In this document: one piece after another, positions 1,346 to 47,853 of the stretch
How the letters are laid out: each line of letters opens with the position of its first letter
Numbering within the stretch: the stretch's first letter is position 1
Source of the DNA: a virus
IMG/VR virus record: IMGVR_UViG_3300019764_000005
Coordinates: 8,155-72,154 of that record
Length of the DNA stretch: 64,000 bases
Reading direction: 5' to 3' (one strand)
The notes under the pieces: model-generated
Told to the model about the DNA's origin: nothing
Databases searched by the model: none
The model's input: the letters and a program-made list of their open reading frames with translations, nothing else
Made by a program: the position numbers and the translations under genes

Positions 1346-1772
1346 TTTCGTCCATTAAAACGGACGATAACAGTCGATGAAAGCACATGAAAAAACGTGC
1401 TTTATCTTGGTGTTACCCACCATAATGTGAGTTAAGCACCTCTGTTATCTTATGGTCGGTTGGTTCATACCAAAAATCGGCAACTGGAATAGTTTCATTA
1501 TCATCAGACCAGTTGGTTAAATAAACACCATCACTCTTTTTAACAACATCGCAAGTTGCCTCGAGCAGTTCTCCCTTTTGGTACACTATCTTGTGTCCTG
1601 GCATTATTTTCACACCGTTCATATCTGTCATTAAAATATTACGGTGGGTAACATTGTATAAACCCAATTGCTTTTCGTAGGCTTCAACAATGTTTTTTGC
1701 TTCTAAGTATTGTCCCTCTGTTATCATATCTTTGTTCTTTTAATTACGCAACTGTGTTTATACTTACCGTTA
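1346..1772 (-). mobile_element. Hairpin-cassette element E1 (A module 1649-1772, B module 1412-1652, type I end 1346-1415)
   Basis: A arms TAACGGTAAGTATAAACACAGTTGC / GCAATTGGGTTTATACAATGTTA; B arms GTTACCCACCGTAAT / ATTATGGTGGGTAAC (14/15 complementary); 70-bp end shared with E2. Confidence 0.7.
1413..1727 (-). CDS. Hypothetical protein spanning the A/B junction of E1
   Basis: 104-aa ORF; junction reads L-Y-N-V(GTT)-T-H; stop codon is the TAA of TAAC. Confidence 0.75.
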   Translation of the reverse strand: MITEGQYLEAKNIVEAYEKQLGLYNVTHRNILMTDMNGVKIMPGHKIVYQKGELLEATCDVVKKSDGVYLTNWSDDNETIPVADFWYEPTDHKITEVLNSHYGG

Positions 1773-2042
1773 TAGATCCAATTCCTCACCTATTCGTTTT
1801 ATCAAGTCGAAATGCTTGTTAGATTTGTCAATTAGAGGATATAGTGAAAGTAAATTTCTTGCCTCACGTAAAAGATTGTCTGAATTCAAAAGGACCTTGT
1901 AAATATCTCTTTTGACCTCATCAGGCATCTTTCTCTTATTATTTAGCCATTGAGATAATTGATGCACAGACTTGCCAATTTTTTCTGCTACAAAGGTGTT
2001 TTTTAAACCCTTTTCTTTAATTAAATTTTGAATATTTTCCAT
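1770..2042 (-). CDS. XRE-type HTH DNA-binding protein
   Basis: IKEKGLKNTFVAEKIGKSVHQLSQWLNNKR HTH pattern. Confidence 0.75.
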   Translation of the reverse strand: MENIQNLIKEKGLKNTFVAEKIGKSVHQLSQWLNNKRKMPDEVKRDIYKVLLNSDNLLREARNLLSLYPLIDKSNKHFDLIKRIGEELDL

Positions 2043-2064
2043 TGTTCTAATTTTAAGTACTCTG

Positions 2065-2072
2065 CAAATGTA
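2065..2072 (-). promoter_or_regulatory. Bacteroidota -7 promoter box (TACATTTG)
   Basis: Matches TAnnTTTG just upstream of the leftward gene in a divergent intergenic region. Confidence 0.6.
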
Positions 2073-2167
2073 GGTTAAATTTCATTAACAAAAAACACTT
2101 AAACCTTATTTTAAATTAGTCTAAATATGAATTGTATAGTTTTATTGACATTGTAGATTATTCTTTT

Positions 2168-2175
2168 TAGATTTG
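2168..2175 (+). promoter_or_regulatory. Bacteroidota -7 promoter box (TAGATTTG), probably a leaderless transcript
   Basis: TAnnTTTG ends 4 nt before the ATG at 2180. Confidence 0.55.
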
Positions 2176-2179
2176 CCAT

Positions 2180-2848
2180 ATGATTAAAAAGAAATTGAAA
2201 GTCTGTAGAGGAATTGGGAAAGCTAAAGATTACGGCTGTGGAGATGATAAGCTTATTCATAAATATGGCTTATGCACTGGATGTTTTGCTAAATGGCTTT
2301 ATAATTCAGAAGAAGGACAGCAGGTTCTTAAAAAGAGTGTTTTGCGAGCGAAAGGGAAAGTTCGCACAGATAATAAGATTAAGCACAATCAAGCCAGGCA
2401 AGATATTAAAAAGAAGGCTGAATTTGAAAAAGATCTTCAGACCGAAGTAAATACTATCGTTAGACTTATTGATGTAGATAAAGGATGTATTAGTTGTGGG
2501 CATGGATGGAAAGAAGGTTGGACAAGACAAGCACATGCAGGACATTACTATTCTGTAGGATCAGACCCTACTTTACGCTTTAATTTTTTTAATATTTGGA
2601 AACAGTGCAGTATTTGTAATAATTTTAAAGGTGGCAACGAAAGAGCTTATGCTGACGGAATTATAGAGCGTTACGGGAAGATGACTCTTCTGAGGATGAA
2701 TGGTCTTAAAGCTAAGTATAAAGAAATTCACCTGGCAAAACATGAGCTTATCGAAAAGATTAAGATTGCCAGGAAGATTAAAAGAGCTATAAAATCTGGT
2801 AAAGATTACACCAGAGATGAGTTGAATGACCAATTAGGTATTTATTAA
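2180..2848 (+). CDS. ninG: NinG/Rap-like HNH recombination endonuclease
   Basis: CISC...AHAGHYYS...LRFN..NIWKQCSICN motifs. Confidence 0.8.
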   Translation: MIKKKLKVCRGIGKAKDYGCGDDKLIHKYGLCTGCFAKWLYNSEEGQQVLKKSVLRAKGKVRTDNKIKHNQARQDIKKKAEFEKDLQTEVNTIVRLIDVDKGCISCGHGWKEGWTRQAHAGHYYSVGSDPTLRFNFFNIWKQCSICNNFKGGNERAYADGIIERYGKMTLLRMNGLKAKYKEIHLAKHELIEKIKIARKIKRAIKSGKDYTRDELNDQLGIY

Positions 2849-2863
2849 TTTAAAATTTGTAAA

Positions 2864-3160
2864 ATGAAAGACAAAATTCAGCCAGCAGGAAGACCTTTAA
2901 ATGAAGGCGAAATCGAACAATTAAGAATACAAGAGGTGTGCGCAAACAAGCAATACCGAAAAGATCTGGATGTTATTCTTCAGGAAATAAAAGCTTGTCC
3001 AGGTTCCAGAGAAAGATCCTTAGCTATCACAAAACTTCAGGAGTGTATTATGTGGCTTGGTATGGATCTTAAGCGTTTAAACGAACCTAATCCGTATCCT
3101 GAGAGTTATAATCCTAAAAGCTCGGTAATTGAGCCTACTTCGGATGATTTAAAACTTTAA
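2864..3160 (+). CDS. Acb2/Tad1-hairpin-like protein (candidate nucleotide-signal sponge)
   Basis: SRERSLAITKLQECIMWL helix-hairpin motif in a 98-aa protein. Confidence 0.55.
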   Translation: MKDKIQPAGRPLNEGEIEQLRIQEVCANKQYRKDLDVILQEIKACPGSRERSLAITKLQECIMWLGMDLKRLNEPNPYPESYNPKSSVIEPTSDDLKL

Positions 3161-3192
3161 TCTTTTTTTTAACAAACATTTAATTTTATATT

Positions 3193-3474
3193 ATGCAAGA
3201 TCAACCAAGTTGCCCAACACCAATAACTGAGGCAGAATCTTTAAAAAATGGATTCTTAGATGTAATTGTAGGAATAAGAGAAGCTAAGGAAAGACTGACT
3301 GCTTTCTCTGAAAGATTTTGTGGCGAAGGTCTTCCAGAACTAAAAGATAAACCAAGCGATCATGATAAGCAAACACCAAGCGTTATGCATGATCTTAAAA
3401 GTATGAAAAATACAATCAATGATAATTTGAGTGCGATTCATGCATTGATTTGCCGCTTGGAGAATTTCGTTTAG
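3193..3474 (+). CDS. Hypothetical protein
   Basis: 93-aa ORF co-oriented with neighbours. Confidence 0.6.
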   Translation: MQDQPSCPTPITEAESLKNGFLDVIVGIREAKERLTAFSERFCGEGLPELKDKPSDHDKQTPSVMHDLKSMKNTINDNLSAIHALICRLENFV

Positions 3475-3540
3475 ATTTTTATTCCCACGAAAATTGACAT
3501 AAGTGCAAAGCCTGATATCTCCAAATATCAGGCTTTTTTT

Positions 3541-3840
3541 TTATTTCTTCTTCCCTCTGGCACGTTTATCGCCTTGAGTATCTTTACTACTCCCCCTATT
3601 TTTCGAGCTATCCTTATATATGGTTCCGTTTGAGGTATGTGACAAGTCTTTCCCTGAACGGTTAACTCCTTTCTTATCCGCAGCATAGTTTTTTCTTCCA
3701 AGCTCTCTTCGTTTCGACTTTTGCTCGGATCTCGCATTTACCTTCTTGTCGGTAGCTGCTTTTTTCTTTCTAGCAGTTGGATTGTCCCGGTAATATTTAG
3801 CAGACTTACATACTGCTCCTTTTTTCTTTGGAGGTGCCAT
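3541..3840 (-). CDS. Small basic protein, possibly degenerate HNH-like
   Basis: K/R-rich 99 aa with GKDLSH...SSKNR, downstream of portal. Confidence 0.55.
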   Translation of the reverse strand: MAPPKKKGAVCKSAKYYRDNPTARKKKAATDKKVNARSEQKSKRRELGRKNYAADKKGVNRSGKDLSHTSNGTIYKDSSKNRGSSKDTQGDKRARGKKK

Positions 3841-3850
3841 TGGTTTTATT

Positions 3851-6265
3851 TTAAATTGGTAATTGAGTTTCTTGATTTAAATTTAACGGTTGGTTCTCGA
3901 TCGGTGCATTCTTAGCAAATTGTTTTAATTCCTGCTCAGTTTCGAAATCCTGTGAACCGGTATTTTTCTGTCTTTGATCGATCATTCTAGACTGCTGAGA
4001 AGCTTGTATGCCAGTTCTCTTGTCCTTGCGATCTTCTTTCATTCTATCAGATCTAACAAGGTAATTATTCTTCTTATTCTCGATATCCGATTCATACATG
4101 TACTTCATTTTAAGAAGTAGAGCATCACCTTCAGTTTTCTTAGATATAAGCAAGGCTTCTTTTCTTCCTTCGAAAGTAATCTTAGCCTGATCAGCTTGCA
4201 TTTGCATTTGGAAGGTTCTTTGCTTTTCCTTTTCAACAAAAATGGCAGTTTGCCTTCTACCATCTTCAGTAGCTTTGATTTGTTGAAGTTTTTCTTCTTG
4301 TATTTGTCTTCTCCTCTTTTTAATCCTGATCTTAAGATCCTTATTGGCTAGTTTAAGATTACGAGTATTTAAGAGATCAATTCTATCTGGAATATCGATA
4401 TCACCTTTCTGAATGGCAAGATCAAGCGTAGCTTTAAAATTAGCTCTCTCTTGAGCATCTGGAGCTACATCAATTGTAATAGAATATTCATACATGTGAA
4501 GCTGACTTCCTTCCTGAAGAACCTTCACGTTATTCTCACCAAGTAAATTCATTATTGCACGATTGTACTTTTCACCGTACATGCTCATATTTTGAATTCG
4601 TGAAACTATAAATTCAGAACTTCTCTGAAGGATAGACATTGTTCCGTCAAGAATCCTTTTAGTTGCAGTATTACTTGCATTTATAGCTAACTGTTGGGCT
4701 CCTACCAATGTGTTGTCGAGCGATTGAGATCCATCCCTTGCCGGATTTACTCCTGTCACATCATAAAGCATCTTTACATTGTGATTGTAATAAACAATCA
4801 ATTGCTGAAGTTCAGAAGATATCCCACCAGGGATAGGCTTGATTGGTTCCCCATTTATGTACTCTCCCTCTAAATTTCGACTTGAATACAATAAGTCTCC
4901 TCGTTGATTATAAATGTCAATAAGGTCAGGTACTCTCAAAACATCTCCATTCCCTAAATCAACTTCAGCTAACGCATCGATGTCGATAGATACACCAGAC
5001 GGTTTGGCTGTTGATATTAATTGCTGTATTTTCAGTTTCGTTATCTGAAGATCATCGGCAATACTTACCATTCTTTTAACCATGGATGGTGTGCTCAATT
5101 CGAATACAGAATACGGTGGCATTACGTTATTAATGTCAGAATTTGGACGAACCATATCATGCATTAATTGGTAGTTGTAGACGAATTGTGTCCCGGTAAT
5201 ATAAAAACCTTCAAACCACACATCGTAGGTTCCTTGTAGTTTTTCACTCCTTGAATTTTCATGGACCTCAAATGTGTCTTTTTGTTTACTAATCTTACCG
5301 TACTTCTTCTTCTTGTAAGTTTCGTTCAATGTTGTCTCGAAGCAGAATTCCATCACCTCAACATTGTAATTGTATAATTCTTCCTGACGGAAATCTTTTG
5401 GATTACCAAGTATGCCCAGAGAGCCATTAATCATGCTCTTTAATTGTTCGTCAGAGAATTTATTTCCACTGGCTTTCTTAATCTCCTCAATCTTCATTAT
5501 TCGGACTTCTCCAAAATAATAACAACCACGCTTATCCTCTGTGCGTTCTGGATCAAATGAATATATGAAGTTTTGCGGATCTATTCGTCTTTGCAATATA
5601 CCCACTGATGGATCAACTATATTTCTGGCAATACCGATACCATAAGTAATAAGATCCTCGATTATTAATCTGTAAAGATTTTCCCAATGGTTTATGTCGA
5701 ATATTTTAGCAAGGCATATCTCAATGGCTATTTCTTGTGGCTGCACAAACTCATCCATATGAACATCAAGTTCTTCTTCGGTTTCCGGAACAAATCCCAT
5801 GGGGGAGAAATCCATTCCAGTTGCCTGAGTAAACGCATCGGTAAATGGCTTGGCGAGCATTTCCGTTTCCAGATTGTTTCTATACCTTTCTTTCCTGCTC
5901 ATGGATTGCTTATCAATGCCATTTGCTTGAATTTCAAATATATCAATTGGATACCCATCTCGTATAATATCGATAAATTTCGGAATGATTTGAAAATAAG
6001 TCCAATCGAACGCTGTCCATGCCTTATCCTGACTCACATTGAGGATATCTTTAAATTTAGATGTATCCACATCTCCTGTTCTGAAAGAATCTAGGTATTG
6101 AAGCTCACTTCTTCTTTGAATCAATTTCTGATCCTGTCTTGCTCCGTATAGCCATTCAGTTTCAATGAATCGTGCATAAGCCAATCCATAAGCATCGGAT
6201 TTCTTAGTATCATTATCAGATAAAGGATCTGGATAATTCTGAAATAACGTGTTAACTGCTCCCAT
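3851..6265 (-). CDS. Portal protein (crAss-like)
   Basis: 804 aa, IIPKFIDI, DLITYGIG, DVTGVNPARDGS motifs, coiled-coil C-terminus, directly after terminase. Confidence 0.85.
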   Translation of the reverse strand: MGAVNTLFQNYPDPLSDNDTKKSDAYGLAYARFIETEWLYGARQDQKLIQRRSELQYLDSFRTGDVDTSKFKDILNVSQDKAWTAFDWTYFQIIPKFIDIIRDGYPIDIFEIQANGIDKQSMSRKERYRNNLETEMLAKPFTDAFTQATGMDFSPMGFVPETEEELDVHMDEFVQPQEIAIEICLAKIFDINHWENLYRLIIEDLITYGIGIARNIVDPSVGILQRRIDPQNFIYSFDPERTEDKRGCYYFGEVRIMKIEEIKKASGNKFSDEQLKSMINGSLGILGNPKDFRQEELYNYNVEVMEFCFETTLNETYKKKKYGKISKQKDTFEVHENSRSEKLQGTYDVWFEGFYITGTQFVYNYQLMHDMVRPNSDINNVMPPYSVFELSTPSMVKRMVSIADDLQITKLKIQQLISTAKPSGVSIDIDALAEVDLGNGDVLRVPDLIDIYNQRGDLLYSSRNLEGEYINGEPIKPIPGGISSELQQLIVYYNHNVKMLYDVTGVNPARDGSQSLDNTLVGAQQLAINASNTATKRILDGTMSILQRSSEFIVSRIQNMSMYGEKYNRAIMNLLGENNVKVLQEGSQLHMYEYSITIDVAPDAQERANFKATLDLAIQKGDIDIPDRIDLLNTRNLKLANKDLKIRIKKRRRQIQEEKLQQIKATEDGRRQTAIFVEKEKQRTFQMQMQADQAKITFEGRKEALLISKKTEGDALLLKMKYMYESDIENKKNNYLVRSDRMKEDRKDKRTGIQASQQSRMIDQRQKNTGSQDFETEQELKQFAKNAPIENQPLNLNQETQLPI

Positions 6266-6271
6266 GGTATA

Positions 6272-9530: not shown

Positions 9531-9792
9531 GCGATTCGATTATCTTTTTCCAATCATATTCAGTAACCACGATATTATTCTGAGTCACCATTATTTTTTT
9601 CCATAAGGCAACCGAGTTGTGTTTATCATTGACATACACTTTCGCAATAAGAAATCCATCTTTAAACTCCTCTTCAATAGAGCTCACGTTGGTTTCCCCG
9701 TTGCAAACCGAAGATCCAATCTTAAATCCTACTTTTCTTTCGTTCTCACCATATGAGATTTGTCTAACTTGCATAGTAAGTAATTTATACAT
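9523..9792 (-). CDS. Hypothetical protein
   Basis: ORF overlapping the next gene in the operon. Confidence 0.6.
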   Translation of the reverse strand: MYKLLTMQVRQISYGENERKVGFKIGSSVCNGETNVSSIEEEFKDGFLIAKVYVNDKHNSVALWKKIMVTQNNIVVTEYDWKKIIESHA

Positions 9793-10147: not shown

Positions 10148-10149
10148 AA

Positions 10150-11914: not shown

Positions 11915-11981
11915 TGTAAATGTTATTTTATAACGGATAGTAATATGACCTGTGCGACAATTACGCACGAACCTACAATAA

Positions 11982-12782
11982 ATGAACGAATGTAAAATTT
12001 TTAAAAGCGAAGCGATGGCAAAAAAAATATTATGGTTTAGTTGTGGAGTAACTTCTGCGGTAGCCTGTAAATTAGCCTTAGAAAAATACGGCAAAGAAAA
12101 CTGTTTACTTGCCTATATAAAAATTGATAGTGCACACCCAGACAATAAAAGATTTATTGCAGATTGTGAAAAGTGGTACGATGCACCAATTGAAATATTT
12201 AGAAGTGAAAAATACACCGACCAATACGATGTAATAAAGAAAACAAAGTACGTTAATGGCGTTGGCGGTGCAAGGTGTACTCTTGAATTAAAAAAGAAAG
12301 TGCGTTACGATATTGAAGAAAAATACGACTTTGACGGACAAATATTTGGTTTTGAGTTTACAAAGAAAGAAATAAACCGAGCGATAAGATTTGAAGAACA
12401 ATACCCACACACAAAACCTATTTACCCACTAATTGAAAGCAAACTAAGTAAAGCTGAATGTTTAGGTATATTAACAAAAGCAGGGATTAAACAGCCAGCA
12501 ATGTATGAATTAGGCTACCATAACAATAATTGCATTGGTTGTGTAAAAGGTGGTATGGGGTATTGGAATAAAATACGTGTAGATTTTCCAGAGCATTTTG
12601 AAAGAATGGTTGAAATGGAAGCGCATGCAAATAGAAGCTGTGTAAAAGGTGTATTTCTAAAAGATTTAGACCCAGAAAGAGGCAGACACGAACCGCCAAT
12701 ACTGCCCGATTGCGGTACATTTTGTGAGATTGAATTTGAACATATAATAGATAATAAAGTAGAACAAATTTTAAAAGGTTAA
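11982..12782 (+). CDS. PAPS reductase-like (adenine nucleotide alpha hydrolase fold) protein
   Basis: WFSCGVTSAVA PP-loop, CTLELKK, YELGYHNNNCIGCVKGG; true start may be MAKK. Confidence 0.8.
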   Translation: MNECKIFKSEAMAKKILWFSCGVTSAVACKLALEKYGKENCLLAYIKIDSAHPDNKRFIADCEKWYDAPIEIFRSEKYTDQYDVIKKTKYVNGVGGARCTLELKKKVRYDIEEKYDFDGQIFGFEFTKKEINRAIRFEEQYPHTKPIYPLIESKLSKAECLGILTKAGIKQPAMYELGYHNNNCIGCVKGGMGYWNKIRVDFPEHFERMVEMEAHANRSCVKGVFLKDLDPERGRHEPPILPDCGTFCEIEFEHIIDNKVEQILKG

Positions 12783-12784
12783 AA

Positions 12785-13163
12785 ATGAAAAAACAAACAG
12801 TTTATTTAGCAGGAGGTTTTAATTCTGATTGGAGAGAAAAAGTAAAAGAATGCACCAACGTTGAATTTAAAGACCCGAAAGAAAAAGAACTTAAAAAAGA
12901 GTTTGAATGGCATGAGTATGCTTGTTGGGATTTACACTACATAAAGCATACAGATATTTGCTTGGGTTTACATGGAAAGAACAAACCCAAGCGGATATGG
13001 GTTGAGTGCTGAAATTGGATATGCAAAAGCTTTAGGTAAAACTGTTGTTTTGGTTTTAGAAACTGGGCATGAAAAAGACAGATACTTGAAGTTTTTGAAA
13101 GGGTGTGCCGATGTGGTATATGATAATTTAGAAGATGGAATTGCGTTTTTATCTTCTTTTTAA
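12785..13163 (+). pseudogene. Nucleoside 2-deoxyribosyltransferase-like gene split by a +1 frameshift
   Basis: VYLAGG...D...DI in the first ORF and SGYGLSAEIGYAKALGK in the second; removing one G at 12964-12966 restores ...DICLVYMERTNPSG... Confidence 0.7.
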
Positions 13164-13420
13164 CTCTAATAGCTTTGAAAAAGCTAAAGTGCGGTGGGGC
13201 TTTTAAAAATTTGGCAATTACACACTACCGCTGATTAAATGAACCGAACTAAGCATGGGTTATATTACGTGTTAGGCACTGTGCCTTATTTGATTAGAAG
13301 TACAGACCTACACTAACCCACTTAGTTTTAAACTTGAAAGGCATTGTGCCTAACACTAAGATAAAGCACGTTTTTTCATGTGCTTTCATCGACTGTTATC
13401 GTCCGTTTTAATGGACGAAA

Positions 13421-28737: not shown

Positions 28738-29112
28738 ATGAAAAGAACTATCAATTTAATGGATGTTAAAATAACAGACATCAACGAAGTCGAGTACAAT
28801 GAGGAACAGATGAAGACTATTGTTAAGCAAGCAGCTAACATGATCTTCAAAAAGGCTGACTCGTATGAAATGCTTGACTATGGGAAAGGATTTCATAATC
28901 TTGAACCGGTTAAAATAAATGAGGATGAAGCTGCCAAGATTAAGGATATAATCAGAAATCCACAGGAAGGGTTCTTGTTTTTTGTATCTGCTCCAATCTG
29001 TGCATATATAGATGAGGAGTTTAAGAAGCCGCTAAAACCCAGACCTAGCAAAATTGAAAATGATGAGCCAATTGGACCTATGGTTATAAAAGAAAAAGAG
29101 GGAGGCGTTTAA
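28738..29112 (+). CDS. Hypothetical protein
   Basis: 124-aa ORF. Confidence 0.6.
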   Translation: MKRTINLMDVKITDINEVEYNEEQMKTIVKQAANMIFKKADSYEMLDYGKGFHNLEPVKINEDEAAKIKDIIRNPQEGFLFFVSAPICAYIDEEFKKPLKPRPSKIENDEPIGPMVIKEKEGGV

Positions 29113-29125
29113 GCTTCCCTCTTTT
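29094..29125. terminator. Bidirectional terminator; exact inverted copy of 50123-50154
   Basis: AAAAGAGGGAGGCGTTTAAGCTTCCCTCTTTT between convergent genes. Confidence 0.75.
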
Positions 29126-33414: not shown

Positions 33415-33462
33415 ATCTATTCATCCTTTTAATGATAATTTACTTTTAAAATGATAACGTCA

Positions 33463-33500
33463 CAAATATACGGCACCAATAGATTAGATCCAATATAAAT
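33463..33500 (-). promoter_or_regulatory. Composite promoter ATTTATATTGGATCTAATC-N11-TATATTTG
   Basis: Recurrent motif at fixed spacing from the -7 box. Confidence 0.65.
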
Positions 33501-35266
33501 AGTAGTACACTTATCAATAATCGAAAATAACACTCTTTTATCCCACCTCGGGGAACTTTTAATTCAACCCCCATGAATACTCAATTCCTATTCTGAGGAT
33601 TTCACGCTGAATTAAACAATAATCAGGATTAAATGGAGAAATGGAGAGAATAGACCACTTTTAAGGTGGAAAATGGACTTGGAAAGAGTGAAGAAGGAAG
33701 TGTTAGGGAATGGGAAAAATGAAATTTTGAATAGGCTGAGAGTACCCTAATGCGTTTCCCAGCCCTCTCTTCCACTTCCGAAAGTACCCCCACCCCTTTC
33801 CTATCCATCCGCTTTTCCGTTTCATTTCTATACTTTTTTACCTTTTTTCATGGGGTATTGGTGGCGATGGACTACTTACTATCCACCAACTCTGCACATA
33901 TTACCTAATCTGATTGACTGCCTTATTCGCGCGGAAATGATACTCTATCTCGATATTATGTGTAGATATCTAATACTTTTACAAATGGTCTGTATTTTTT
34001 TCACTACTCACCCAAATACTATTGTCTACTTGGTACAATATTGTGTGTTATGCGAGTTTGTGGTGAGAAATTTAGGGAAATTATGGGAGCTACTCTGCTT
34101 AAGGGGATACTGATTAGGGGAATTCCTCCCTTCCCACAGTCTTTTCCTTCTCATCCTTATTAAATCGTGACATATCCCGTCCTCCCTCGTTATCCCGTCA
34201 TCCCTCCCCTTATCCTTATTTTATTATGGTCTTTCGTTGTCTTGTGTCTTCGTTCCTGTTGTGTCGTGGTGCTTTCGTGTTGTACTGGTATGTTGCCCTG
34301 GGTTTGTGTTATACTCTTTAGTGTTATTCTTTGTATTGTATTGTCTTTACTCTCTATTAGTGGATGACTACTTGCTTAACTGTTTGGAGTATTTGAATTG
34401 ATGGTCATTCTTGTTCTATTATATTATAGTGTTATTTGTTTGTTCTCTTATACTTGTGTGATAATTTACAAATTGTGTGATATCTCTGTACGCCCTATTG
34501 TTACTGGGATACTCAAATTAATTGTCAATTATTTTTAAATTATTTTCACATAGCAATTTGTTTTTGTGTTTTACGGCTGTTTTTAGTCTGTCTATTTATC
34601 ATTTTGTAGCTCATTCTACATGTAACTATTTATTAATGTGTTGTTTGTATTTCTTATCTAGATCATGTAAATATGACGTTCGTACGTGTCAACTGTGTAA
34701 TTATTGTTTAGTACCTTTTTGTTACTATCATTAATTATCAATGATTTAAGTAATTTTGCGTATTAAATCTTTTCGTCGCACCTTAGCAACACAGAACAAC
34801 GAAACACCCCACAAAGGGATTTTTACACTTCTGTATCGTTCTTTATTTCTTGTCTGTTTACATTTCATCCGAAAGGAATTATATTTATTCATAGTGTTCT
34901 AAATATCATTTACCGCGGATTTAATCAGGATAATTAATATCGTACGTTCTTTGACATATAGAAAAGGGGTTTTTTGCAATGAAGGCATTGTTTTAAATCG
35001 GTATCGAGTCTATAATGGACTTAAAACAAAACTCTCACACCCTATGAAATAACAATTAAGTTGATTACTCTGGTAGGGGGTAAATGAATTAAGGTTAGAC
35101 CTTACAGGAATTCTAAGAACCAAAAGAACGGTCATGGGTGTAAAATGATTTACGCCCTAACTTTAATTACATGGCTTGAAAGGCTTTGCGTCTACTATCT
35201 ACTGTTTATGCAATGTGATCTTTATACAGTTTGTTACTGTCAAGCCTACTATATTATTTTGGTATT
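33501..35266. other. Long non-coding divergence region (candidate genome end, origin or early promoter leader)
   Basis: No credible ORFs; purine and pyrimidine tracts; genes diverge on either side. Confidence 0.55.
34945..34957 (+). promoter_or_regulatory. boxA-like antitermination motif CGTTCTTTGACAT
   Basis: Resembles rrn boxA; a second partial copy CGTTCTTTA lies at 34837. Confidence 0.4.
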
Positions 35267-35997: not shown

Positions 35998-36072
35998 GGC
36001 TTAGTAGCTCAGTTGGTAGAGCGCAAAGATTAAATTGTCTTTGGGTCGCGGGTTCGAGTCCCGCTTAAGCCA
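35998..36072 (+). tRNA. tRNA-like RNA with a non-canonical 10-nt anticodon loop (identity undetermined)
   Basis: GGCTTAG/TTAAGCC acceptor, GCTC-AGTTGGTA-GAGC D arm, CAAAG-ATTAAATTGT-CTTTG anticodon arm, GCGGG-TTCGAGT-CCCGC T arm; no encoded CCA. Confidence 0.8.
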
Positions 36073-36100
36073 CAAAATTATTCACTAAAATTTATATAAA

Positions 36101-39315: not shown

Positions 39316-39326
39316 TATTCCGTATT

Positions 39327-40343: not shown

Positions 40344-40436
40344 TCTTATTCAAATTCATTCTAAATACATAAATTAGCAACTTTACAATTAATAAAACTT
40401 TATTCAATTAGTATTAATCAACACCGTTAATTTAAA

Positions 40437-40913: not shown

Positions 40914-41920
40914 TGATCAAGTTCGGGATATCAGTGAACTACGTTCCAAATTGGGGCGTAGTTCAAGCTATCAGGGAGATATATCAAAACTTCATTGACT
41001 ACGGAGAGTATGATGTCGAGGTAATTGAAATAAACGACACTGTCTCAAGCGTTAGAATAAGTAGTGATTACAAGCCTGAGAGTTGGGAATTTTTAAAGAT
41101 CGGATTCTCTAAGAAAAAAGATGGGGCTATCGGAAAGCATGGGGAAGGACTTAAATTGGCTGGACTAATTTTCAACAGAAACAAGAAAGTATTCCAGATT
41201 AATTCATGTCTTGGTCAAGCTGAAGCTGCCTTTTATGATGATGAGAATCTGGGCAGTTGCTATGGGATTAAGATAGGAGATGTTACTAGTGACAGGTTCG
41301 AAGTTTACTTTGAGGCTGACAATAAGGATATTTCTATATTCAAGGATAGTAGCGTCAAAGATGAAGACATTTTGAACTCTTGTTATGTTGGCGACATTTT
41401 GAGTAAAGATCCTGGAAACATATACGTAGGACGATTATTTGTTTGTAATCTTAAAGGACTCAAGTATTCTTTGAACTTCAATCCAGACTGTGTTGATCTT
41501 GGAAGAGATAGGGATATGCCTTCTACGTTTGACTTAGAGTACTACACAAACAAGATCATTAACTCTTGTAGTCATGAATTGGAATTTAAACCTTCCGACA
41601 TACACAATAGAGAGTTTAATGTAGGGTCATTACCATCCGAACTTACACGGAAGTTCAGTCCAATTCTATCCAATGATGGAGATATTCAAATGAAAGCTGG
41701 CAAAACCGTAGTTACAGATGAATCAAAAATCAGAGAGATATCAAAAGATCCTATAGTTGCCAAGAAGGTCGAGAAACTTAAGTATGCTATTATTTACAAG
41801 CAAAAGAAAGCTCCATCGACCATCCTCACGGAACTTAAAAATAATCTCCATCTTACCCAGCAAGAAATAATCCAGTTCGATTCGATAATTAAACTGTCAA
41901 GAAACTGGAGGATTAAGTAA
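40913..41920 (+). CDS. GHKL (HATPase-like) ATPase domain protein
   Basis: AIREIYQNFID, IGFSKK, IGKHGEGLK. Confidence 0.75.
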   Translation: MIKFGISVNYVPNWGVVQAIREIYQNFIDYGEYDVEVIEINDTVSSVRISSDYKPESWEFLKIGFSKKKDGAIGKHGEGLKLAGLIFNRNKKVFQINSCLGQAEAAFYDDENLGSCYGIKIGDVTSDRFEVYFEADNKDISIFKDSSVKDEDILNSCYVGDILSKDPGNIYVGRLFVCNLKGLKYSLNFNPDCVDLGRDRDMPSTFDLEYYTNKIINSCSHELEFKPSDIHNREFNVGSLPSELTRKFSPILSNDGDIQMKAGKTVVTDESKIREISKDPIVAKKVEKLKYAIIYKQKKAPSTILTELKNNLHLTQQEIIQFDSIIKLSRNWRIK

Positions 41921-42010
41921 TGTTTTATTTGTATTCATTCTAAACACTCGAATACGTAACTTGCAACTGAAATCAACGCAGGTAACGTATTCAATTTAAT
42001 CACTTGACTA

Positions 42011-42268
42011 ATGGAAATTACAGAAAAGCAAGCTCTCAATTGGCTAATCGATTCAGTAAGCGGAAACAAAGCTGTAATAGAACAGTATGATCAGTTTCCA
42101 TTTAATGATTTTGTATGGTTTCCGAAATCGGAACTAGCCGTTTTCTTTAATGTTAGAAAACAGGAATATACTCTCACTTTGGACGGAAATAATGTATGTA
42201 AGTTTTCTGCCGAAGATGATTTATCTTTAATTGAACAGATTCACGACCAAAGACTTGAATACTCATGA
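42011..42268 (+). CDS. Hypothetical protein
   Basis: 85-aa ORF. Confidence 0.6.
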   Translation: MEITEKQALNWLIDSVSGNKAVIEQYDQFPFNDFVWFPKSELAVFFNVRKQEYTLTLDGNNVCKFSAEDDLSLIEQIHDQRLEYS

Positions 42269-42810
42269 AAAAGGTTCGCATAAAAGATCATTTGTATTTT
42301 GAACCAGGGGATTACGTCATGTATGAAACCATAGACGAACTTAAGAAGTACTTCGCGCCAAAACGTAGTTATCAAGCCTTACAAATATGCCTTGAAAAAG
42401 AAGGTTTCAAAGGTTTCGTTCAAGTTATGACTTCTGAAAGACCTTTGTTTTGTCCTGTGTTTGAAAAACATATAGAATCTGAAGATCAGTTTGTATTAAC
42501 CAAAGAATGTGTAGGTAACATGAAACTTTTAAGAACTCACTTTGGACCCAAGAATCCTAATGTGGAAGATCCTTTCACAACATCGGGTTCTACTGGAATC
42601 ACGTTAACCATGGATTCTATTGAGAAAAGAATTGACTTATTGAAGTCTTTATCACTATCCGATTTTTCTAAGGATGATGAATCGGCTATACAGTCTCTAA
42701 TCACATCTATCGAGGATCCTATAAAGGAACTCGATATTACTGAAATGACTCCTGATCTATGTGAAAGGTTGGAAGCCATTAAATTTAAATACAACGTAAT
42801 TGAACTTTAG
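42265..42810 (+). CDS. Hypothetical protein
   Basis: 181-aa ORF with ATGA overlap. Confidence 0.6.
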   Translation: MKKVRIKDHLYFEPGDYVMYETIDELKKYFAPKRSYQALQICLEKEGFKGFVQVMTSERPLFCPVFEKHIESEDQFVLTKECVGNMKLLRTHFGPKNPNVEDPFTTSGSTGITLTMDSIEKRIDLLKSLSLSDFSKDDESAIQSLITSIEDPIKELDITEMTPDLCERLEAIKFKYNVIEL

Positions 42811-42858
42811 AAGCTAAGGCGGTAGCTTTCAATACCGCCATAATCAAATTTTTACACA

Positions 42859-43350
42859 ATGAAGTATTTCGAAGCGTCAATAAGTTTCATGGGTCAAAAC
42901 CCTGCAGGTCGAGATGTTAAAGAAACAGTAACTCTGATTATGCAAACCGAGACATACGGACACACAGAAGAGTTGGCATACAAATGGCTAGAAGTTAATC
43001 CTAAAAGAGCTCCTGACGTTACAATCAAGAAAAGCACTATAGATGAAATCCATACGGATCATACTGAGGCTGATTTCTTCTGCGCTAAAATCCTTGCTGA
43101 TACTGGCGAGAAAAAGCCACTTAAAATGAATGTTTTGGTTGATGGCTACAGTGATGAGAATGACGAACAAATCCTTAAGAATGCCGAGGTCAACGTTAAA
43201 GAATCTACCCGGGATTTCCTTGCTGATATCGAGGTCTTGAAAATTGAAAAGACCAGTATTATAGAGATAGTTCCTCATGACTATGGTGCACTGAAAGTTG
43301 ATTTCGAAACAATTGGTCATGATCCTTCCAGTGACTTGAATAATGACTAA
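42859..43350 (+). CDS. DUF4494-like Bacteroidota protein
   Basis: MKYFE.SI.F...G...KE...E pattern, two-repeat architecture. Confidence 0.45.
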   Translation: MKYFEASISFMGQNPAGRDVKETVTLIMQTETYGHTEELAYKWLEVNPKRAPDVTIKKSTIDEIHTDHTEADFFCAKILADTGEKKPLKMNVLVDGYSDENDEQILKNAEVNVKESTRDFLADIEVLKIEKTSIIEIVPHDYGALKVDFETIGHDPSSDLNND

Positions 43351-43463
43351 CTACACTGAGTGTATCTACGCAGAGCAAATCGTGTTCTGCGTAGTTATGC
43401 TGTTTATCGTATTAATTCAAATATCAATAAAGGAACTGATCCTTTTCATAAAAAGAAAGAGAA

Positions 43464-43961
43464 ATGAAAGTATTAACAAATCAAGAAGAGCGGTTCCTGA
43501 TATTTGCAATGAAAAATATTCCCGCAAAATACTCTAAAGCTGCTATATGTCAATGTTTAGCTATATCGTGCAGGCTTGACCATGAATCTGTCAGAAGAGT
43601 TGTTGGTGTATCCTTAGGGTATGTCAAGAATTCTGTTTCTGGATTAAACGTCATCAAGTGGAGCGATAGACCAGAGCGTATCAGGCTTACCAATTATCTC
43701 AAGCCAAGGGTAAAGGAGGCTACTACTAATGTAAGAATGTTTCTAGTTGCTGAAACTGATAATAATCCTGTATATCTAATTACTACAGATGGTAAAGATC
43801 CTGACGAGGATTCAAAGATGCTTCATACGGGGTACATTAATATTCATAAACGTCAGGATACTAAGTATAAGGTTAGAGCTGGCAATTATTCAGAGGTGGA
43901 TATTCTCTTAACTTCATTTGGAAGTATGAGAGTAAAAGATCTTATTAATAAATCAAGATGA
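43464..43961 (+). CDS. Hypothetical protein
   Basis: 165-aa ORF. Confidence 0.6.
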   Translation: MKVLTNQEERFLIFAMKNIPAKYSKAAICQCLAISCRLDHESVRRVVGVSLGYVKNSVSGLNVIKWSDRPERIRLTNYLKPRVKEATTNVRMFLVAETDNNPVYLITTDGKDPDEDSKMLHTGYINIHKRQDTKYKVRAGNYSEVDILLTSFGSMRVKDLINKSR

Positions 43962-43973
43962 TTTGATTGTTTC

Positions 43974-43996
43974 GCTCTTTAGAAAAGAGCACAAAA
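43974..43996 (+). repeat. GCTCTTT-N3-AAAGAGC hairpin, copy 3 (directly precedes E3)
   Basis: GCTCTTTAGAAAAGAGCACAAAA-TTA-TAACG. Confidence 0.8.
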
Positions 43997-43999
43997 TTA

Positions 44000-44807
44000 T
44001 AACGGACAAGGCTATGTGGCGTGGCTTTTCGCCATGATATATAGGTAGTGTTAGGCATCTGTATTTTTTTAATTTTTTAGGGAGGGATTTTTTTATTTTA
44101 AACCAGAAACAATGATAGTATTAATAACACACGAAGAAAGCCAAACGGTAATGACTGCATTTTTAGAAGCTGGACACGATGCTTATAGTTGTGATTTATT
44201 GCCAGCAAGTGGAAAGTACCCGGAAAGGCATTTACAAATGGATTACCTAAAGGCTATTGAAAAAATACAGCCTGATTTTTTGGGTATGCACCCAGAATGC
44301 ACACGATTAACAGTTGCAGCAAACAAGTATTATAAACCTGAATATGCAGAAAGGTTTCCGACTATACACCAAGATAGATTAGAAGCGGTTGCACACTTTT
44401 TTAACTGCGCTATGGCTTTGGAAAAAATAGGTAAAGGCTATATTGAAAACCCAATTGGAATAATGAGTCGATTGTATAAAAAACCTACCCAAATAATACA
44501 ACCTTATGAATACGGACACACCGAAAGGAAAAGCACTTGTTTATGGCTTGCCGGATTACCAAAGTTAGAGCCAACAAACATAGTTGAGCCTGATATTATA
44601 GTGCATAAGAGCGGAAGAACTGACAGCCGATTACACTACGAAACATTTAAACTACCTAAAGAGGAAAGGAGAAAAGCACGAAGCAAGACATTTAAAGGAA
44701 TTGCTGATGCTATGAGTACACAATGGTTTTGAAAAAACCAAAGCGGGCGGGCAAAAATTAATAAAATATTGTGCCTAACTACTTTATATATTCACTTTCA
44801 CTTCCTA
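44000..44807 (+). mobile_element. Hairpin-cassette element E3 (54-bp A module, B module 44050-44779 with MTase, type II end)
   Basis: TAAC..CTATGTGGCGTGGC-TTTTC-GCCATGATATATAG..GTTA; B arms GTTAGGCA..TATTTTTTTAATTTTT / AAAAATTAATAAAATATTGTGCCTAAC. Confidence 0.7.
44112..44732 (+). CDS. Phage-type DNA cytosine methyltransferase-like protein
   Basis: EESQ..AF..GH.AYSCD, HPECT (catalytic Cys), IENP, QPYEYG, RSKTF.GIA.AM..QW. Confidence 0.75.
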   Translation: MIVLITHEESQTVMTAFLEAGHDAYSCDLLPASGKYPERHLQMDYLKAIEKIQPDFLGMHPECTRLTVAANKYYKPEYAERFPTIHQDRLEAVAHFFNCAMALEKIGKGYIENPIGIMSRLYKKPTQIIQPYEYGHTERKSTCLWLAGLPKLEPTNIVEPDIIVHKSGRTDSRLHYETFKLPKEERRKARSKTFKGIADAMSTQWF

Positions 44808-45107
44808 CTTACGCACTCATTTACAGTAATATGAACGGTAAAATTAATAAAACATCATATGGATAAATTCTTAATAGCCGAACGCCTAATAGTAGGAGCA
44901 TTGCTATTGTATATGATCCTACCAGTATTAGGTATAATTAGTACTAATTTAACAAGAAAAAAAGCTCATGAAAAAGCCGAAGAAAATAAAGGACCATATG
45001 TCTAAAAAGATTTTAGAGCTTGACACATCTAAGATGGATAATGAAGAGTTGTTTTCGTTCACCAAAAATAAAGAGCATTTTTTTAGAAAACTTTTAAAAT
45101 AATATCA

Positions 45108-45821
45108 ATGCAATCATTACACAGATTTTACCTCGATTTAGAGGTCGTAGGGCACAAGCCTACTATTGAAGAATTACAGGCTAAAATTAAGCCTAGTGCT
45201 AATTGCAAGACCGATGATTCCCGTCTTGCCAGTATTCAAAAGCAAACAGATGCTTTACTAAAAAACCCTGAAGCTGCACTCGAAGCTGCTCATCGTAAAA
45301 ACTCTTTGGATATTTTCAAATCCGATATTATATGTGCGGGTTTCAAATTCGATTCCCATAAAACAAGAGGTGTATGTTACATAAAGGAGCGAGATACCGT
45401 TAAGGAGTTAAATAAGATCTGCAAAGATCTTGGCACTGAACAACACTTGGTTGAGTGGGTTACTTGGAATGGTACCGAGTATGACATTCCTATCCTTACT
45501 GCTCGTGCTCTTCTTTATGGATACATGGATTTGTACAACTCTTTACCAAAGAGTAAGAACGATAAAAGGAATATCGATCTAATGCATCATGTAACTCCTA
45601 CTATTTGGAAGGCTTATTATTCACTATCGGATATTTGTAAGTATCTTGGTATTCCGGTTAAAGAAGGTCTTATTACTGGTGCTAATGTCTTTGACCATTA
45701 TTACGATGGCAATATTAAAGGTATTAGAAAGTATTGTATTCAAGATGTCCAGGCGTTAGTAAAGCTTGCTAAACGTTTTAATCTTGATTATACTATAAAG
45801 GGTAGGCATCATCTTGATTAA
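45108..45821 (+). CDS. 3'-5' exonuclease (DEDD/PolB-exo-like)
   Basis: LDLEV, TWNG..YDIP, YC..DV. Confidence 0.8.
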   Translation: MQSLHRFYLDLEVVGHKPTIEELQAKIKPSANCKTDDSRLASIQKQTDALLKNPEAALEAAHRKNSLDIFKSDIICAGFKFDSHKTRGVCYIKERDTVKELNKICKDLGTEQHLVEWVTWNGTEYDIPILTARALLYGYMDLYNSLPKSKNDKRNIDLMHHVTPTIWKAYYSLSDICKYLGIPVKEGLITGANVFDHYYDGNIKGIRKYCIQDVQALVKLAKRFNLDYTIKGRHHLD

Positions 45822-46236
45822 CGGTAAATTGTATGGCAATGTAATTTTACGGATTTGAAACACAAAATAACAATATTATGAAATGGAAATTTGAAAAAGA
45901 ATTTAGGGCAGACCACCCAGAAACAATAGGTGAAACTGATAGAGAGTTTGACATTGACAATTACAAAGATTGGCTTGAACAAAAGTTAGTAAAATTATTT
46001 GCTATACAAGATGTTAGCCAACGAAGTGAACTGTTAGCAATTGCCGCCCTCGACAAAATTGCACACCCTATTAAACACCTACAAGAAGAAGCTGAAAAGG
46101 ATGGGTGTAAACTTGATGGATATATGGCAATACAGCTAACACAAGATGCTAATTTTTACCAAGAAATTGCAGATAAAGCACTAAAGGCAATTGCTAATTG
46201 TGGCTAACTACTTTATATATTCACTTTTACTTCCTA
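45819..46236 (+). mobile_element. Hairpin-cassette element E4 (A module 45819-46016, B module 46013-46208, type II end)
   Basis: A arms TAACGGTAAATTGTATGGCAATGTAATTTTAC / GTAAAATTATTTGCTATACAAGATGTTA; B arms GTTAGCCA / TGGCTAAC plus a perfect 12-bp IR at 46034-46045 and 46186-46197. Confidence 0.72.
45878..46207 (+). CDS. Hypothetical protein spanning the A/B junction of E4
   Basis: Junction reads I-Q-D-V(GTT)-S-Q-R; stop codon is the TAA of TAAC. Confidence 0.75.
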   Translation: MKWKFEKEFRADHPETIGETDREFDIDNYKDWLEQKLVKLFAIQDVSQRSELLAIAALDKIAHPIKHLQEEAEKDGCKLDGYMAIQLTQDANFYQEIADKALKAIANCG

Positions 46237-46291
46237 TAAACGTACTCATACACAGCGGTATAAGCGGTAAATTTATAAAAAAACCAATCTC

Positions 46292-47221
46292 ATGAAACAC
46301 ATCATTTTAAGCAGCTCAATGACTACGGCTCTTGGTTTATTTGTTTGTGATGATGAAATACTCACCGTAGATCATTGTCCGAAGTATGCTAAAGCAAGGC
46401 ACATAGGCGACGAATCCATAGTGGATAAGGATTCTAAAAGTGTTCTTCAGAAAAAATACTTCAGGACGCAATGTCTTGGTACTTACAAGGATGGTGAGTG
46501 TCTTAACGATCTTCCAAGGCTTAGTAATAAATCCAAGGGTGTCGAGCAGAAAAGAATCGATTTGCAAGTTTTGGAATATCATAAGCTTATAGCAGAACGA
46601 AACATCAACGTAAACATCTACAACACCAACATGGCTTTAATAGCTTTTTTTGGACAAATTGAGATTGGGGATGATGATTATTCTGTGTGGCTTAAGGATG
46701 AGATTAGCATCTTCCCTACAGTGGTTGATTATTCTGATTTTGCCATGGTCGATCTTGAACTTACTCGGGATGTTTACAATGACTTCTTTGCTCCTGGGCA
46801 GGTAAGGAAAGTTTCTGGTAGTTGTTGGGGCTCTCCTCAGTACATTGCTAAGAACAAACCTTTATTCTCTCACTACATTGTCCGAAATATGGATAAGGAC
46901 CACATTTTAAGGCTTAATGCAGACAATACTGAGAAGGTTGAAGCTCTTATTACCGATCAAGTTATCAGGCTGTCTAAGGATGCTAAATTCTACTACATTG
47001 TATTTGGTCACACTTCAAGCAAGTCTAACAAGAAGCAAACTCGGGTTGTAAAGTATGAGTGGAACAAGAAAAGATCATCTCTCCTTGACGAACTGGTAAG
47101 TAAGGCTCTTGACATATACATGGAGAATAAAGTTAATGGTTGGGTGGCTAATCCTATCTCAGAAATATGTAATAAGTGTCCTTTAGAATGTGAGTTAAAG
47201 GACAAGGATATTGAAATTTAA
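46292..47221 (+). CDS. Cas4/PD-(D/E)XK-like nuclease, divergent
   Basis: N-terminal CP and C-terminal C..CP..C cysteine cluster; lies near the annealase. Confidence 0.4.
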   Translation: MKHIILSSSMTTALGLFVCDDEILTVDHCPKYAKARHIGDESIVDKDSKSVLQKKYFRTQCLGTYKDGECLNDLPRLSNKSKGVEQKRIDLQVLEYHKLIAERNINVNIYNTNMALIAFFGQIEIGDDDYSVWLKDEISIFPTVVDYSDFAMVDLELTRDVYNDFFAPGQVRKVSGSCWGSPQYIAKNKPLFSHYIVRNMDKDHILRLNADNTEKVEALITDQVIRLSKDAKFYYIVFGHTSSKSNKKQTRVVKYEWNKKRSSLLDELVSKALDIYMENKVNGWVANPISEICNKCPLECELKDKDIEI

Positions 47222-47233
47222 TCTTACAATGTT

Positions 47234-47428
47234 ATGATATTAGAATTTGGCAAATATAAGGGATTGAGCATTTATAGTGTTGCAGATGATGATCCAAGCT
47301 ATGTTATATGGCTTGCTCAAGAAACTAATACTGATGTTCCATTAGATGCTATAGCGTGGGCTAATGATGCTATGATGGAGCCTGATTATGAAGATTTACA
47401 TGGAGATGATTGGGGTTGTAGGGATTGA
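47234..47428 (+). CDS. DUF3820-like small protein
   Basis: FGKYKG..I..V...DPSYV.WL. Confidence 0.65.
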   Translation: MILEFGKYKGLSIYSVADDDPSYVIWLAQETNTDVPLDAIAWANDAMMEPDYEDLHGDDWGCRD

Positions 47429-47470
47429 ATGTGAGTTTAAAAATAAAGATATTGAAATTTAATTGGAACC

Positions 47471-47493
47471 GCTCTTTAAAAAAGAGCACAAAA
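47471..47493 (+). repeat. GCTCTTT-N3-AAAGAGC hairpin, copy 4 (directly precedes E5)
   Basis: GCTCTTTAAAAAAGAGCACAAAA-TTA-TAACG. Confidence 0.8.
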
Positions 47494-47496
47494 TTA

Positions 47497-47853
47497 TAAC
47501 GTTGAGCGTTTTGGTAGTTGGGATTTTGAAAGACTACCCTACCAAATATTGATAACTTTAAATAGAAATACGATGAAACAAAATAACACAGAAACCCAAT
47601 TACCTAAACATATTGTTAGCACCCGTTACTTAGATGACGATGTTGTGCTAACCACAGATGATGAGTTCTTCTTTTATTGGGAGGTTAAAAAGCACAAACT
47701 TACAGTAAAAGAAAAAGCTACAGATAAAGAAGCTGCTGAATATAGAAAGGAATTTGCGTATTGGCAAAAAGAAGAACAGGAAAACCAAACTGCTGCAAAT
47801 TACGGTAGTAGTTATGGGTGCTAACTACTTTATATATTCACTTTTACTTCCTA
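47497..47853 (+). mobile_element. Hairpin-cassette element E5 (A module 47497-47618, B module 47615-47825, type II end)
   Basis: A arms TAACGTTGAGCGTTTTGGTAGTTGGG / CCCAATTACCTAAACATATTGTTA; B arms GTTAGCACCC / GGGTGCTAAC. Confidence 0.72.
47573..47824 (+). CDS. Hypothetical protein spanning the A/B junction of E5
   Basis: ATG at 47573 (track uses TTG at 47549); junction reads K-H-I-V(GTT)-S-T-R; stop codon is the TAA of TAAC. Confidence 0.7.
   Translation: MKQNNTETQLPKHIVSTRYLDDDVVLTTDDEFFFYWEVKKHKLTVKEKATDKEAAEYRKEFAYWQKEEQENQTAANYGSSYGC

Follow-up and report, generated by a model that had tools for sequence, protein, structure and literature searches.

Dispersed TAAC-bounded double-hairpin elements in a phage genome are probable mobile gene cassettes

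Introduction

What are the five gene-bearing hairpin elements (E1 to E5) that lie dispersed over a 64,000-nt stretch of phage DNA, and do they move? The stretch, here called the window, comprises bases 8155-72154 of a 72,154-bp viral contig (IMG/VR record IMGVR_UViG_3300019764_000005). A previous sequence-only reading had described the elements as nested inverted repeats anchored at TAAC and GTTA and had interpreted them as an integron-like cassette system. We propose that each element is a self-contained mobile gene cassette of a structure-defined, site-specific recombination system in phages of Flavobacteriia and other Bacteroidota, a reading to which we assign a probability of about 0.72. 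Its strongest support comes from cultured phages with the same layout, in which units were gained, lost and moved precisely at TAAC. By analogy, the window's own copies would be mobile as well.

Results

Architecture of the five elements

Read in the sense direction, all five elements consist of TAAC, stem A, GTTA, stem B, TAAC and one of two constant ends. The first TAAC is followed by a short unpaired stretch, arm A, loop A, arm A' and a shorter unpaired stretch that leads to GTTA (module A; 124, 1344, 54, 198 and 122 nt in E1 to E5). GTTA is directly joined to arm B, and arm B' to the 3' TAAC (module B), after which the constant end starts. The earlier coordinates and sizes hold for all five elements, which are arranged with their repeats as follows.

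E1, 1346..1772, minus strand: 5' TAAC 1772-1769; module A (stem-loop A) 1772-1649; GTTA 1652-1649; module B (stem-loop B) 1652-1412; 3' TAAC 1415-1412, its TAA a stop codon; constant end I1 with an empty A-type hairpin (1415-1367) and a small hairpin (1366-1349).
E2, 11931..13420, plus strand: TAAC 11931-11934; module A 11931-13274 with arms at ~11940-11950 and ~13256-13266 and a loop of 1.3 kb; GTTA 13271-13274; module B, an empty hairpin, 13271-13354; TAAC 13351-13354; I1 to 13420.
E3, 43973..44857, plus strand: upstream D3 hairpin 43973-43990; TAAC 44000-44003; module A, a short empty hairpin, 44000-44053; GTTA 44050-44053; module B 44050-44779, its stem closing round a whole gene; TAAC 44776-44779; D1 to ~44857.
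E4, 45819..46286, plus strand: TAAC 45819-45822; module A 45819-46016 with arms at ~45829-45850 and ~45987-46008; GTTA 46013-46016; module B 46013-46208 (stem of 8 bp + 12 bp); TAAC 46205-46208 (stop codon); D1 to 46286.
E5, 47470..47853, plus strand: D3 hairpin 47470-47487; TAAC 47497-47500; module A 47497-47618 with arms at 47509-47522 and 47596-47609; GTTA 47615-47618; module B 47615-47825 (stem with 10 bp perfect, 13/15); TAAC 47822-47825 (stop codon); D1 core to 47853.
D1: direct repeat, three copies at 44768, 46197 and 47814, unstructured on folding.
I1: 78-nt inverted pair, 95% alike, at 1346-1423 and 13343-13420; an empty A-type hairpin followed by a small hairpin.
D3: hairpin with a 7-bp stem, CGCTCTTTnnnAAAGAGC, followed by ACAAA; five copies, plus strand, at 35266, 36292, 43973, 47470 and 49591.

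Both constant ends are thus genuine repeats, as had been stated before. Every copy of D1 and I1 begins at TAAC, and the bases directly upstream of this TAAC can pair with a stretch that is led by GTTA and lies 84-730 nt farther upstream. E3 and E5 have common outer flanks (D3..TATAAC and CTAAC-D1) around different interiors, E1 and E2 share the end I1 beginning at TAAC, and the TAA of the 5' TAAC of E4 is the stop codon of the upstream exonuclease gene. All three arrangements fit a unit inserted 3' of TAAC.

The D3 copies are each located 10-12 nt past a stop codon and near the next start, two of them directly upstream of E3 and E5. D3 may be an operator, a terminator or a processing site. A scan for sigma-70-type promoters and terminators stayed at chance level. 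One contig from another sample matches the window from 46267 on, but differs upstream, and therefore represents a natural mosaic variant with its breakpoint within the extended D1 region.

Units of the same layout in other phages

The same layout recurs in other phages. A 64-kb metagenome phage contig (L007), reached via a homologue of the E4 open reading frame (ORF), carries three units in tandem, in which a 132-nt leader (a module A hairpin) is duplicated with 93% identity and followed by differing B modules with their own arms of 10-18 bp; the array ends in a D1-like end. The cultured Flavobacterium phage lillamy9-1 holds a chain of at least 14 units, with 14 A modules alternating with B stems from 9097 to 2037, and this chain makes up the whole leftward early operon. 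In Polaribacter phage P12002L two tandem units surround a methyltransferase and a Mom-like gene, with arms that resemble those of E3. TAAC and GTTA bound module A in 5/5 window elements, 3/3 units of L007 and 14/14 of lillamy9-1. A survey of 33 bacterial-genome loci with an E3-type methyltransferase (320 kb) revealed further units in contigs of metagenome-assembled genomes (MAGs) of Flavobacterium, Chitinophagales, Massilibacteroides and Ignavibacterium, as well as in some contigs labelled as Firmicutes. No unit passed the thresholds used in Maribacter phage Panino, whose terminase (35% identity) makes it the closest cultured phage to the window phage.

Gain, loss and movement at TAAC

Six lillamy-type genomes, which are 98-100% identical in aligned stretches, differ by seven insertions, deletions, replacements or translocations within the array:

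Event 1: 439-nt unit located at 6079..5637 in lillamy9-1 and at core 2040 in phages 9-3 and 9-7.
Event 2: 342-nt unit missing from snork6-2.
Event 3: 439-nt unit missing from snork6-2.
Event 4: 1166-nt insertion with a methyltransferase at core 6601 in sniff9-1 and snork6-2.
Event 5: 476-nt unit present in 9-1 and 9-3 only.
Event 6: 794-nt insertion with another methyltransferase at core 6079 in morran9-1.
Event 7: 460 nt in place of a 720-nt core-to-core stretch in morran9-1 and 9-7.

Each of the seven events has its two junctions at TAAC|G or, where the array ends, at TAAC|TAC. The overlaps of the BLAST alignments at the junctions are 5-16 nt long and centred on TAAC, which means that TAAC and a few neighbouring bases are shared. 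Comparison of filled and empty sites revealed insertion 3' of TAAC, precise sealing and no other target duplication. The move of the 439-nt unit in event 1 resembles cut-and-paste, with flanks that are 100% identical and an empty donor site that consists of a single TAAC. Since 7/7 events fall on TAAC, we conclude that the units are mobile cassettes of the form G..A..GTTA..B..TAAC, inserted 3' of TAAC. The presence/absence and exchange at these boundaries that the sequence-only reading had called for was therefore found, in relatives by layout and not in relatives of the window phage.

Outside the array, gp01-02, the first two genes that point rightward, are swapped between sniff9-1 and lillamy9-1 (1-1400 of the latter) without any TAAC: an SbcD-like exonuclease stands against an RNase H-fold exonuclease, and the breakpoints lie at start codons. 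Ordinary gene replacement hence occurs beside the cassette system.

Specific pairing of the arms and comparison with chance

Both core tetranucleotides are frequent. In the 72-kb contig there are 303 TAAC and 306 GTTA per strand, about 1 per 240 nt each, and one or the other occurs about every 118 nt. Perfect GTTA..TAAC inverted repeats of at least 8 nt within 800 nt were seen eight times, compared to 5.6 in Markov shuffles, and are not enriched genome-wide. All five TAACs that adjoin a constant end carry such a repeat, and with gaps allowed stems A and B reach ~17-27 bp.

Arm sequences differ between elements while the pairing is kept, as the sequence-only reading had noted; the energies confirm that arms match their own partner only. 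In an arm-pairing matrix of eight units, the five window elements and the three of L007, matched arms had mean energies of -22.2 (A) and -26.1 (B) kcal/mol, versus -11.2 and -11.9 for arms taken from different elements. The matched pair was the best in its own row and column for 8/8 B stems and 7/8 A stems. The arms thus covary. Plain folding of module A alone as single-stranded DNA gave a weak and uninformative signal (z -0.2 to -2.4), because the loops are long.

A combined scan for A and B on both strands of the 72-kb contig returned exactly the five elements, four on the plus and one on the minus strand, in gene orientation. The threshold was set to the energies of the weakest real element and was chosen after seeing the data. 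At the same thresholds 74 shuffled sequences gave a mean of 0.068 units and a maximum of one, so that equally good nested repeats, which at a similar frequency would have spoken for chance, were far rarer than in the contig. Looser thresholds resulted in a mean of ~0.8 units and a maximum of five in 40 shuffles.

Folding strand and stem structure

The sense strand forms the better duplex in 17/19 stems, and G·T pairs are distributed 47 versus 12 in its favour. We infer from this that the sense strand is the one that folds. In the predicted folds, the 14 A modules of lillamy9-1 start from a TAACG base, above which more bases are left unpaired on the 5' side than on the 3' side; the stem that follows has a C/A mismatch and, in its 5' arm, a 1-nt bulge, and is capped by a variable loop of 9-130 nt that often holds an A-rich leader and the start codon. 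They are 64-194 nt long, with 8/14 between 119 and 130 nt. Predicted folds of the window A modules have similar spacers. Of the integron 7-mers, RYYYAAC fits none of the five window TAACs that open module A, and GTTRRRY fits two of the five middle cores (E2 and E3).

Cargo and reading frames

The cargo is accessory and comprises DNA methyltransferases, other DNA-modification genes and small ORFs:

E1, 1413..1727, minus strand: ORF of 104 aa spanning both stems; no Pfam, PHROG or phage tblastn match.
E2, 11982..13163, plus strand: two genes in loop A, a PAPS-reductase-like gene (11982-12782; phrog_424, E 8e-49) and a nucleoside 2-deoxyribosyltransferase-like gene in split frames (12785-13012 + 12972-13163; weak Pfam match below cut-off).
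E3, 44112..44732, plus strand: DNA methyltransferase gene in loop B (phrog_757, E 1e-55).
E4, 45878..46207, plus strand: ORF of 109 aa spanning both stems.
E5, 47573..47824, plus strand: ORF of 83 aa from ATG spanning both stems; no family or phage match.

The placement of the ORFs relative to the stems therefore varies, from loop A (E2) or loop B (E3) to a position across both stems (E1, E4 and E5). A methyltransferase of lillamy9-1 and one of P12002L likewise lie within a B loop. The two overlapping frames of the deoxyribosyltransferase-like gene in E2 could reflect a frameshift, a pseudogene or an assembly error.

Where an ORF crosses the middle core, GTT is read in frame as Val (6/6 cases: E1, E4, E5, units 1 and 2 of L007 and lillamy gp09), and in six of the eight units of the window and L007 the ORF stops at the TAA of the 3' core. 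With GTT and TAA both in the reading frame, the cores allow small proteins to exchange halves. The E4 protein is such a two-part mosaic: its relatives match either residues 1-47 or residues 48-109, and the joint (Val46-Ser47, GTTAGC) coincides with the middle core. An inversion switch of the shufflon kind was rejected, as inverting B truncates the ORF in E1, E4 and E5.

The source contig and its other features

The contig is linear and encodes a portal protein, a large terminase, a GroEL-like chaperonin, a Sak-like annealing protein and NinG/Rap. Its terminase shares ~35% identity with the terminases of Maribacter, Flavobacterium and Cellulophaga phages, and window DNA was detected in microbial-mat metagenomes. 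DNA searches of a phage collection with the window sequence matched the methyltransferase ORF only, single-protein searches of viral and metagenome contigs gave no relatives of the window phage, and exact scans of viral contigs for D1, I1 and D3 gave no match. No syntenic relative could therefore be aligned to the window.

Known RNA families are represented in the window by one tRNA gene and nothing else. This gene (35998-36073, plus strand; Rfam tRNA, 56.8 bits) has a four-base anticodon (aaat) according to ARAGORN, which suggests an 8-nt anticodon loop; the tRNA could be frameshift-reading or otherwise unusual. About 1.7 kb without convincing genes (~33420-35140) lies between divergent gene blocks, has G/T-rich runs on the plus strand and may be a genome end or a replication origin. 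At each of the two points where gene blocks converge stands one copy of a GC-rich, terminator-like hairpin of 37 nt (29089-29125 and 50123-50159); the two copies are 97% alike and oppositely oriented. A 43-nt motif with three copies (31180, 32224 and 33459; read on the minus strand) is located upstream of minus-strand genes and ends in TAnnTTTG, presumably a match to the Bacteroidota -7 promoter box. A separate motif, ATTCATTCTAAA, is found at ~11884, 29660 (reverse strand), 40356 and 41935. Upstream of E5, a 37-nt direct duplication (47186-47222 and 47427-47463, 86% alike) that represents the 3' end of ORF 46292-47221 brackets a 64-aa ORF (47234-47428) with an ExoX-like C-terminal domain. There is no TAAC frame, and this looks like a gene insertion of another kind.

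Discussion

A proposed mechanism

In the mechanism that we propose, a cassette G..hairpin A..GTTA..hairpin B..TAAC would lie directly 3' of a TAAC, so that TAAC would stand at both borders and an empty site would be a single TAAC. The sense strand would be the one that folds. In the circle that a unit would form after excision as a single strand, arm B' would be continuous with TAAC and GTTA with arm B, and one unbroken rod-like duplex would result from the stacking of stem B, the TAAC:GTTA pair and stem A, with the core at its centre. Recombination would use this duplex as its site, which would arise by folding just as an attC site does, and the exchange would take place inside TAAC. After integration, hairpin A would stand upstream of its gene, both stems would remain within the unit and a new TAAC would lie at the 3' side, which would account for the tandem pile-up in lillamy-type phages and for the single position of the window's cassettes before end sequences of the type TAAC|TAC.. 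or TAAC|AC...

A more far-reaching version is tentative and, in our judgement, falls somewhat short of an even chance. It holds that virulent phages infecting Bacteroidota, and possibly those infecting other phyla, possess their own non-integron platform, in which sense-strand double hairpins are cut and joined at TAAC by an unrecognised or borrowed host enzyme of the HUH or Xer type, and which shuffles anti-restriction genes and swaps protein halves in frame.

If mobile cassettes of this kind exist, they would provide a concrete mechanism for the well-known mosaicism with which lytic phages gain and lose small accessory genes, with exact and predictable breakpoints. The system is present in cultured pairs, the lillamy-type phages on Flavobacterium sp. 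LMO9 and LMO6, and is therefore directly testable. According to the genome paper on these phages, plating efficiency on one host varies with methyltransferase content (Nilsson 2020, PMC7077304). Since these data tie methyltransferase content to host range, cassette movement may be a fast route of restriction escape. A search of the text of the same paper gave no mention of repeats, hairpins or indels. Literature searches returned no description of TAAC-cored double-hairpin cassettes, which is not proof of absence. Structure-defined sites, a strand opposite to that of attC and frames that run through the core would also make the system of interest as a recombination tool.

Points against cassette mobility and the search for an enzyme

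Several observations weigh against cassette mobility. The 72-kb contig, estimated to be 68% complete, gave no match to PF00589, PF01797 or PF00239; the absence of an integrase that had been noted for the window is thus borne out for tyrosine, serine and Y1 recombinases of the whole contig. PF00589 and PF01797 are equally without a match in 3/3 complete lillamy-type genomes. Four further sequencing runs gave no sign of movement of the five window copies: their contigs, which omit rare variants, were identical where they covered the elements and had no core joint. The duplicated leader of L007 and the mosaic of the E4 protein have boundaries at GTTA and not at TAAC, which a simple TAAC-only model does not account for; the other strand may be used on rare occasions, or a conserved leader may allow homologous exchange. 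The strand bias is equally compatible with a role in mRNA. Finally, the E3 methyltransferase has counterparts in Cellulophaga phages phi19:1 and phi19:3 and in lillamy-type phages that are 81-82% identical in nucleotides, over the ORF alone. Since phi19:1 and phi19:3 carry the gene without such a frame, genes also move independently of the arms.

The enzyme is probably supplied by the host. The integron integrase model TIGR02249 was above cut-off in one of four host MAGs (432 bits), but in none of 101 genomes in the genus of the Flavobacterium MAG. In the same 101 genomes PF01797 (Y1 HUH) was above cut-off in 45 and absent from 56. The 12-kb neighbourhoods of two units in MAG contigs contained no recombinase. 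NinG/Rap and the methyltransferase are the only genes shared by the window phage and lillamy9-1, and NinG/Rap is also annotated in P12002L; it is only a weak lead because it is a common phage gene. An integron-type tyrosine recombinase and an HUH Y1 enzyme of the IS200/IS605/RAYT kind appear to us as candidates of equal standing, both possible and neither probable, and something else is a slightly more doubtful option.

Comparison with known systems

Elements of the IS200/IS605 family such as IS608 move strand-specifically as single strands, insert 3' of a tetranucleotide without target duplication and leave a precisely sealed donor. The phage units could accordingly be non-autonomous single-strand units of the IS200/IS605 or REP/RAYT type, moved by peel-and-paste with a host HUH Y1 enzyme that cuts 3' of TAAC on the folded sense strand. 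Short units of this kind, including palindrome-associated derivatives, are like the cassettes in many respects: insertion occurs 3' of a fixed tetranucleotide that is kept outside the unit, nothing else is duplicated at the target, empty sites are sealed precisely, folding is strand-specific and hairpins adjoin both ends. The same tetranucleotide also ends the unit, although its use at both ends differs from these elements. PF01797 is at least present in part of the genus of the Flavobacterium MAG. However, it is missing from the phages and from the remaining genomes of this genus. Known Y1 enzymes read conserved hairpins, whereas the arms of the window cassettes are not conserved between units; subterminal hairpins common to all copies, as in IS200/IS605, were not found, and only the base of stem A is conserved in lillamy9-1. 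This conserved AAC/GTT pair at the hairpin base is rather a trait of attC. Varied genes and tandem arrays are further differences. Taken together, we consider an origin as Y1 units unlikely.

A somewhat poorer prospect is an ordinary cluster of attC sites lacking an integrase (CALIN), in which bottom strands fold and a host integron integrase acts. Known attC sites have a size range of 57-141 nt; many A modules are 54-130 nt long, and others reach 194 nt in lillamy9-1 and 198 and 1344 nt in the window. Like attC, the units are set by structure rather than sequence, and hairpin A has AAC/GTT at its base, an unpaired spacer, a bulged base and a variable loop; cassettes stand in unidirectional tandem, the exchange falls into a core of 3-4 nt and G:T pairs mark one functional strand. 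Nivina (2016, PMC5027507) describes attC sites with an R box, an unpaired spacer, extrahelical bases, a variable end and a G:T bias toward the bottom strand, and names sizes of 57-70 and 133 bp. The closest published case is a 2023 report of 17 attC clusters without integrase in virulent phages (PMC9892861). One of these clusters, from the Flavobacteriia phage P12002L, carries two methyltransferase genes, and IntI1 proved able to recombine one site of this cluster in E. coli (PMC9892861). P12002L also carries units of the present layout with methyltransferase cargo, an overlap at the level of the phage. The true integron integrase in one host MAG would fit as well, but its absence from the phages and from the 101 genomes of one host genus does not. 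In addition, the phage cassettes favour the sense strand, while attC folds from the bottom strand, antisense to the cassette ORF. The junctions of all seven events lie at TAAC 5' of the hairpin and give a site plus ORF, whereas the attC crossover at G|TT of R', on the 3' side, gives an ORF plus attC. The phage cores mostly miss the 7-mer consensus, and ORFs may cross a core in frame. The phage loops of up to 1.3 kb hold start regions or whole genes, and stem B, which closes the rest of the cassette with ~20 bp, has no counterpart in attC sites. The earlier proposal of an integron-like system is supported by the mobility at TAAC junctions in lillamy-type phages, while strand, exchange point and most 7-mers speak against membership among integrons, and no integron integrase was found in the phages.

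The stems could also act mainly in mRNA, in processing, in protection or by presenting an A-rich start region, and the pattern could have arisen by homologous recombination between repeated flanks, as in the promoter-terminator stem-loop (PeSL) motifs of T4-type phages. There, exchange depends on homology inside a conserved motif that is tens of bases long. Two papers on these motifs document that gene content between them is shuffled (PMC2839356, PMC4122927), and the cassettes resemble them as accessory phage ORFs framed by repeated stem-loop motifs. D3, D1 and I1 would serve as repeated flanks, the G·U-type pairs favour the transcript strand, and the start codon often lies in loop A and the stop codon in the 3' arm of B. 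In contrast, our stems are cassette-specific, and the shared bases around TAAC at the junctions are far too few for homologous exchange. All seven events fall on TAAC, the cores are conserved in unrelated phages and the varying position of the ORFs speaks against a single role in translation. We regard this reading as highly improbable. A chance arrangement of common tetranucleotides and short inverted repeats, which the abundance of both and the false units at loose thresholds might suggest, is already refuted by the arm-specific pairing, the strict scan, the independent repeats that adjoin all five elements and the recurrence of the layout in other phages with indels at the cores.

The ultra-small mobile elements of mycobacteriophages (MPME) are ~0.4 kb long and consist of a small ORF between short terminal inverted repeats. 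The present units are like them in all of these respects and in residing in phage genomes; MPME copies are near-identical, whereas our units differ in cargo and arms and have only the layout in common. The system fails several of the defining tests of attC and several of those of IS200/IS605. It is integron-like in its working, and not a canonical integron.

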